The notes under the pieces: model-generated | The model's database searches: none | The model's input: only the letters and a program-made list of their open reading frames with translations | What the model was told of the DNA's origin: nothing | Shown: positions 16,421 to 16,992 of the stretch, one piece after another | Numbering within the stretch: position 1 is the stretch's first letter | Layout: every line of letters starts with the position of its first letter | Made by a program: the position numbers and the translations under genes | NCBI RefSeq assembly: GCF_006345805.1 | Contig: NC_042998.1 | Coordinates: forward strand, 167,462,001 to 167,526,000 | DNA: 64,000 bases | Source: Octopus sinensis | Taxonomy: Eukaryota | Reading direction: 5' to 3'

Positions 16421-16992
16421 AAGTAAATATATGGCACAACGAAGTACCGATATTTACTGGAAATAGCGAACGTAATAATACGACGCTAATGTATAGCTTC
16501 ACCGCGTATGTACTAGCAAAAATGCGTGAGTGCAACAAACTTGAAAAAAATTGTCTTACCTCCAGGGAGAACATCTGAAAGATGAAATACCTGGAAAAGG
16601 ATAATGTGGGACCGGAGCCGGTTTCAAATTTTTCAAGATATCGCTGCACACATATACTTGATCTATCTTCATCAGCCAAACATATACCACGACAACATTT
16701 CAGATGTTACCACATTAATGCCAATACACTCGACTGAAACGCCAAAACGCTAACAGAACGAGAACGGTGAAGAAGTTTCAATAAAATTAGTAATGCAATA
16801 CGAGAGTATTGCCTTTCCAGTAAAGAATAGCCCGTGAGGGAAAATTATACATAGAAGTAAATATATGGCACAACGAAGTACCGATATTTACTGGAAATAG
16901 CGAACGTAATAATACGACGCTAATGTATAGCTTCACCGCGTATGTACTAGCAAAAATGCGTGAGTGCAACAAACTTGAAAAAAATTGTCTTA
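16421..16992 (-). mobile_element. Retrozyme/pLTR-like element
   Basis: 138 bp direct repeat, identical by eye, 16421-16558 = 16855-16992 (period 434 bp); hammerhead between the copies; microsatellite flanks. Confidence 0.75.
16604..16683 (-). ncRNA. Type I hammerhead ribozyme, long stem II
   Basis: tgg-CTGATGA-aga...tcaag/cttga...ttt-GAAA-CCGG-CT-CCGG-TC-cca; GUC cleavage site. Confidence 0.65.

Follow-up and report, generated by a model that had tools for sequence, protein, structure and literature searches.

Introduction

Metazoan non-LTR retrozymes are among the closest described systems to the octopus family reported here. In the available text of two sources, they have a non-coding unit of 150-450 bp with a GC content below 45% and a type I hammerhead ribozyme; their copies lie head to tail, they lack LTRs and a primer site, and Penelope-like elements (PLEs) are the proposed mobilizer (PMC7229834; bioRxiv 10.64898/2026.07.22.740005). 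The accessible part of the latter preprint, by Li et al., derives non-LTR retrozymes from PLEs and names no mollusc among its sampled groups (bioRxiv 10.64898/2026.07.22.740005). The retrozyme class is therefore known, and its link to PLEs has been proposed in print on the strength of co-occurrence and pLTR similarity. The octopus family shares the traits listed above. However, its insertions are mostly shorter than a dimer, with PLE-type inversions and two fixed 3′ ends; it has a bulged 43-nt stem II and, in most copies, a 4-bp stem III; no pLTR homology was found; and its ribozyme is known from a predicted fold.

PLEs are truncated at the 5′ side and form pseudo-LTRs by partial tandem repetition; they also have inverted 5′ copies, carry their tail at only one end and insert into TA targets (PMC8557442). 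A PLE enzyme studied in vitro was found to initiate at two internal sites, one on either side of the tail, and to elongate both strands of the DNA (PMC11167929). The octopus family resembles EN+ PLEs, especially the Hydra clade including Hydra-1_Obim, in its 5′ truncation and partial-tandem pseudo-LTRs (PMC8557442; for the mechanism in Poseidon_Ac, PMC11167929), and also in its inverted 5′ arm, one-end tail, (TA)n targets and a hammerhead in the repeated part (PMC8557442). Unlike EN+ PLEs, it carries no RT/EN frame.

Plant LTR retrozymes also combine a hammerhead with terminal direct repeats, and miniature LTR elements form a comparison class alongside them. The octopus family differs from plant LTR retrozymes in that its hammerhead is of type I rather than type III and lies outside the repeat, and in that its repeats are variable, without a primer site or fixed ends.

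Among the papers listed in our literature searches, none dealt with a retrozyme family of octopus or with tails of 65 nt. We read this non-coding, hammerhead-bearing family as an animal non-LTR retrozyme mobilized in trans by PLEs, most likely of the Hydra clade, with a probability of roughly 0.8. In this family the integration footprint of PLEs is seen on a retrozyme itself, and the same genome offers a candidate enzyme whose frame is intact. It thereby becomes possible to test by which enzyme retrozymes are moved and whether their template is a circle.

Results and discussion

The window holds a partial-tandem insertion between microsatellites

We analyzed a window of 64 kb, that is, the whole stretch of Octopus sinensis DNA under study. 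The retrozyme unit was defined as the reverse complement of 16421-16854, with a predicted cut after unit position 245. The features of the locus are as follows.

16421..17004, minus strand: whole insertion, composed of a 12-nt templated piece, a 138-nt partial unit and a full 434-nt unit; 3′ end at site A
16421..16854, minus strand: full 434-nt unit; 38% GC; longest ATG ORF 73 aa sense, 51 aa antisense
16855..16992, minus strand: 5′-truncated upstream pass (pseudo-LTR), unit 297-434; identical to 16421-16558
16993..17004, minus strand: 12-nt piece, matching unit 257-268 in the family's majority allele
16318..16420, no strand: microsatellite of (TA)n/(TG)n adjoining the 3′ end; likely target of the insertion
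17005..17089, no strand: TA/TG/TC microsatellite at the 5′ junction
16781..16845, minus strand: ~65-nt "tail" between the family's two 3′-end sites, internal in the window copy; 7-bp hairpin at 16812-16795
16604..16683, minus strand: type I hammerhead with a bulged stem I, a long stem II (16668-16626) and stem III (16622-16611)
16675-16669 (CUGAUGA) and 16625-16622 (GAAA), minus strand: hammerhead core; predicted GUC cut between 16610 and 16609
16643, 16642 and 16627, minus strand: three near-private changes of the window copy, which weaken the predicted stem II

A reading made from the sequence alone had described two 138-bp repeats without a mismatch. The direct repeat formed by 16421-16558 and 16855-16992, with a period of 434, is indeed exact (138/138). 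However, the insertion runs 12 nt further, to 17004, and 11 of the 12 letters at 16993-17004 agree with unit 257-268; the redundancy is thus longer than 138 nt and imperfect. The 12-nt piece likely reflects a template skip during copying at the 5′ junction. The window copy has a single arm, with its 3′ end at site A, and one hammerhead.

No tRNA gene was found in the unit, and an RT/GIY-YIG frame is absent from it (longest ATG ORF, 73 aa). The 11 ORFs of the 64-kb window gave no Pfam match. TG..CA ends are missing from the repeat, and neither repeat copy is followed by the TGG with which a primer site would start. The insertion is flanked by very high-copy repeats (15940-16310, 17095-17340 and 19492-19793) whose summed contig depth lies far above that of the retrozyme; we take these repeats to be SINE-like. 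Elsewhere in the window, 58472-59103 holds a 322-bp direct tandem duplication (96% matches) that is microsatellite-rich, has no hammerhead match and looks like a local duplication.

A type I hammerhead fold is conserved across the family

The GUC hammerhead that had been proposed was borne out: CUGAUGA, a long, bulged stem II of 43 nt, GAAA and the GUC site all lie on the minus strand. The proposed CCGG/CCGG stem III over 2 nt was not; we instead predict a 4-bp ACCG/CGGU helix with a 4-nt loop. The ribozyme was assigned to type I because the 3′ side of the GUC site is able to pair back with bases before the core. The hammerhead descriptor had a single match in the 64-kb window, and its strict form matched once across 30 shuffled windows. 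Rfam, searched at gathering scores and also by E-value, returned no match to a hammerhead model and microsatellite noise only. The unit folded more stably than shuffles (z = -5.8), but in none of the contexts tried was the active hammerhead fold predicted to be the one of lowest energy.

The ribozyme core was intact in 51 of 56 family copies. Of the 55 extracted copies, 44 were aligned, which gave 32 distinct rows; in these, 96.6% of stem cells were paired, compared with 28-42% in slid controls, and one compensatory pair represents a single event. Judged from these alignments, a conserved, predicted hammerhead fold is shown across the family. In the window copy, the three stem II changes cost ~7 kcal/mol in the active-like fold relative to copy L066, according to folding prediction. 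By the rule of two consecutive hammerheads given in the available text of Li et al. (bioRxiv 10.64898/2026.07.22.740005), the window copy is a monomer and not "active".

Identity of the repeats had also been taken to imply a recent event, and this was only moderately supported. By a Poisson estimate, zero mismatches in ~125 compared sites would have a chance of ~0.08 at the family mean rate, and the window copy's repeat stretch has an identical counterpart at another locus, so the 138/138 identity is not exceptional; the near-private stem II changes also count against a very recent origin. The window copy is, with moderate confidence, fairly young but not demonstrably brand new. Taken singly, the locus is unremarkable, and its copy is slightly damaged.

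The insertion belongs to a dispersed family

The family counts hundreds of dispersed copies, of which the window locus is one, and this excludes the single-copy locus that would have spoken for a plain local duplication. A genome search gave 1386 candidates, and among the 40 that were scored, the best other copies were 94-98% identical; one 30-mer of the unit had 261 exact matches in the genome, compared with 0 for a reversed control. Contigs of four sequencing runs, under four organism labels, covered the unit, which shows the family and not the window insertion; none of the contigs listed extended across the insertion site.

We fetched 86 family loci, sampled non-randomly: 30 best full-unit matches, 30 with the 3′ motif and 26 with a short stem III. 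Removal of 17 overlapping loci left 69, and removal of two segmental-duplication copies left 67. The survey of ends used 122 segments in the 69 loci; the counts of arms, lengths and concordance used 67 insertions and 118 segments. Two or more hammerheads stand head to tail in L005, L014 and two further dimers from the genome search, and in 2 of the 118 segments surveyed. One two-armed insertion (L018, L021, L024 and related matches) recurs in at least six near-identical contexts, and so was multiplied within a larger duplicated or mobile segment.

Insertion ends carry a Penelope-like footprint

The 3′ ends of the 122 segments fell mainly at two places, ~65 nt apart: site A (unit +2 to +17) accounted for 63 and site B (+67 to +75) for 45, together 108 of the 122, with 14 elsewhere. 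The 5′ ends were scattered over the unit and showed no pile-up at the hammerhead cut site. The sequence-only reading had looked to circularly permuted, variable endpoints among aligned copies as support for a circular template; upon alignment the 5′ ends did vary, but the 3′ ends lay at two sites. Run-off at the cleaved 5′ end was considered and not seen, and several apparent ends at unit 240-246 proved to be alignment breaks at the stem III indel.

Outward-facing two-armed structures made up 43 of the 67 insertions (37 A+B, 1 A+A, 0 B+B and 5 unclassed), and the 24 single-armed insertions ended at A in 18 cases, at B in 5 and elsewhere in 1. Nearly all outer ends enter (TA)n, with flanks judged by eye and no background count. 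The redundant length differed from copy to copy (61-632 nt); 38 of 118 segments exceeded one unit, and 2 of 118 exceeded two.

Fixed 3′ ends at A and B, together with A+B pairing, constitute a PLE footprint, so that the "terminal repeats" of the window copy are to be read as a partial-tandem pseudo-LTR. The fixed 3′ ends point to a Penelope-like enzyme that starts internally. Fixed LTR-like ends with a PBS, the other finding that would have weighed against the earlier reading, were absent, as the redundancy is variable and no primer-site start is present.

Under the retrozyme reading, the minus strand would be transcribed, and a PLE protein (reverse transcriptase/GIY-YIG endonuclease) would bind near the tail and nick (TA)n DNA. 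Site A or B would serve as the internal priming point of reverse transcription, in many cases for each of the two strands, and copying would pass the uncut or re-ligated hammerhead site and then its own start. Because copying would continue beyond its own start, the first 138 nt copied would appear twice.

Passes within an arm agree, and so do arms

At least 66 of the 74 passes that reach the cut site continue beyond it. It follows from this read-through and the lack of a 5′ pile-up that the templates had either escaped cutting or been re-ligated. When passes of the same arm were compared at 30 polymorphic sites, they agreed in 207 of 216 comparisons, where chance would give 75 disagreements; of 97 mismatches within arms, 90 were distinct, and no pass-specific difference recurred more than twice. 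New variants are therefore found in both passes, as re-reading one unit would give. Passes within an arm diverged at 80 of 3926 sites (2.0%), and the two arms of an insertion at 256 of 10755 (2.4%); for other loci the mean divergence was 3.4-3.9%. However, the two arms of one insertion were concordant at 619 of 653 sites; arms being as concordant as passes, a shared source locus can explain the concordance. Autonomous PLEs of the O. sinensis genome form the same partial tandems, so a 1.3-mer by itself does not demonstrate a circle.

The window's 1.3-mer had been ascribed to reverse transcription around a circular or tandem RNA. That RNA longer than a unit was retrotransposed is upheld by the dispersed family, in which 38 of 118 segments exceed one unit; the part specific to a circle is upheld only in half, by the varying 5′ ends. 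An RNA circle formed by hammerhead cutting and ligation, with a single unit read more than once, is the simplest template, and we consider it slightly favored by the evidence. The chance that the template was instead a homogeneous tandem transcript, or that copying jumped from one sister RNA to another, is only a little short of even. For the window copy, the 12-nt 5′ piece, with an allele unlike that of the internal unit, argues mildly against one circle.

In L005 (1501-2361), two full units are identical at 430 of 430 sites, with a partial pass 2.7% away. The two units share a 3-nt deletion in the hammerhead core that is lacking from the opposite arm. This is likely a later DNA-level duplication or an assembly effect, and it suggests that some tandems grew later as DNA. 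In the accessible text of Li et al., 8 of 9 retrozyme dimers tested did not cut (bioRxiv 10.64898/2026.07.22.740005).

A young Hydra-type PLE is a candidate mobilizing enzyme

Hydra-type PLE families are present in the genome, one of which is young (seven sampled copies, 99-100% alike). Its 708-aa ORF carries RWK, DKT and CxCx5C motifs, which are the Hydra motifs of Craig et al. (PMC8557442, in part), and has the same two end types as the retrozyme family; Pfam returned no match for this ORF. The young family (L197-L203; for example L199 919-3045, minus strand) has a CCGAAGA hammerhead core and a 66-nt tail, and shares ~58% protein identity with the Hydra-1-like family. The published Hydra-1_Obim hammerhead motif had 31 matches in the genome, most of them followed by the published 3′ end.

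Two young groups of Neptune-like PLEs, which we named from a Zn-finger-like linker, encode RT+GIY-YIG proteins of 775-781 aa. One (L041-L053, L134-L153) has a 781-aa RT+GIY-YIG frame in ~4.8 kb with a 33-nt tail; another frame, of up to 479 codons, lies upstream, and close to the 3′ end the hammerhead core occurs as a UGAUAA variant.

Tails measured on one representative each were 65 nt in the retrozyme, 66 and 59 nt in Hydra-type and 33 and 30 nt in Neptune-like elements. The octopus tail of ~65 nt thus contrasts with the published PLE tails of 30-40 nt and equals the Hydra-type tails of the same genome, which appear about twice as long as published PLE tails. The cut site lies ~197 nt upstream of site A in the octopus family, compared with ~40 nt in Hydra elements. 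Alignment of the retrozyme tail with that of the young Hydra-type family was no better than shuffles (z = 0.07 and -0.5), and similarity to Hydra or Neptune tails was likewise not above shuffles. We found no nucleotide homology to an autonomous PLE among 26 GIY-YIG loci, 20 Hydra-1-like loci, 40 Neptune-like 3′-end loci and 30 Hydra-type protein matches. With no homology and tail alignments at the level of shuffles, the choice of partner rests on tail length and on short end motifs recognized post hoc; on these we lean, with some reserve, toward a partner PLE of the Hydra clade. A PLE beside L060/L061 was considered as the parent and rejected, since it is separated from the family copy by a microsatellite and seems unrelated.

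Alternative explanations

A family driven by PLEs could have used linear tandem transcripts that were never cut, or arisen through template jumps, with the hammerhead an inherited passenger and no circle. We regard this as a serious possibility, though one with the odds against it. The PLE of an anole acted mainly on uncut RNA, and mutation of its ribozyme left insertion normal (PMC11167929). The partial tandems of autonomous PLEs in this genome and the concordance of arms (619/653), for which a shared source locus suffices, fit this explanation as well. Long tandem sources are scarce, however, given that only 2 of 118 segments exceed two units; several subfamilies form arms longer than a unit, with new variants in both passes; and stem pairing has been preserved while the stem III loop changes. 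A different possibility is that the copies are merely truncated 3′ ends, or pseudo-LTRs, of an autonomous PLE that we did not find. Their end structure is identical to that of PLEs, and PLE diversity was sampled in part (150 of 5029 and 150 of 11949 candidates were scored). Nevertheless, 38 of 118 segments have one unit running directly into the next, which leaves no room for an ORF, and in searches of 60 loci against two PLE proteins and 26 against three, only one insertion had a nearby PLE ORF, with a microsatellite in between. We consider this origin improbable.

Least probable of all is a local 138-bp DNA duplication within an ordinary dispersed repeat, or a miniature LTR element. Although the repeats are identical, and L005 suggests that duplication at the DNA level is possible, arms longer than a unit occur family-wide with many different 5′ ends. 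A miniature LTR element is further opposed by the lack of TG..CA ends and of a TGG primer-site start, and by a redundancy of 61-632 nt that differs per copy. The variable redundancy across loci largely refutes both forms of this explanation.

Stem III forms a graded series

Minimal, palindromic PLE hammerheads of the dimer-dependent type have been described (PMC4209133, in part), and one octopus subfamily resembles them in having a 4-nt palindromic helix III. This short form has 26 exact matches in the genome, and an exact 6-nt duplication of it has 12. By hand count over the 100 listed of 129 matches, stem III comprised 35 compensated T-A forms, 28 CU loops, 14 CG loops, 9 other loop changes, 9 of the duplication type and 5 others. 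The longer octopus forms tend to stay palindromic, as do the PLE hammerheads (PMC4209133); unlike those, in the part of that paper available, the octopus family is graded: it begins with the short form, passes through the form with an exact 6-nt duplication and reaches a 4-bp helix in which a compensatory change has occurred.

In a tree built without stem III (61 rows), the duplication copies lay between the short and long groups, with mixed alleles of both, and two short copies and one duplication copy fell off the simple order. The tree had no outgroup; one branch reached 98/90, others were weak and the bootstrap was unsettled. An order of short, duplicated and then long is the simplest reading of these alleles. 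The CG-loop and T-A forms are perfect 12-nt palindromes and strong predicted self-dimers, in line with the dimeric cutting described in PMC4209133 (in part), and the ribozyme is predicted to cut best as a dimer via its palindromic stem III. The series is a small natural experiment in ribozyme evolution.

A fuller account, which we put forward only tentatively and think rather doubtful as a whole, would have the family as a circular RNA parasite read more than once by a Hydra-clade Penelope enzyme. Its 65-nt tail would be recognized by spacing and fold rather than by sequence, and its hammerhead would have evolved from a dimer-only 4-nt palindrome, via the exact 6-nt duplication, to a longer palindromic helix. 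If true, this would provide a named enzyme-RNA pair with which to test animal retrozyme integration and the origin of pseudo-LTRs.

Unrelated short hammerhead-bearing elements were also seen in the flanks of fetched loci, at L043 (oriented 5537 and 5764-6875), L041 6019, L044 351, L048 586 and L197 3158; an inverted arm and a ~130-nt tail mark the L043 element.
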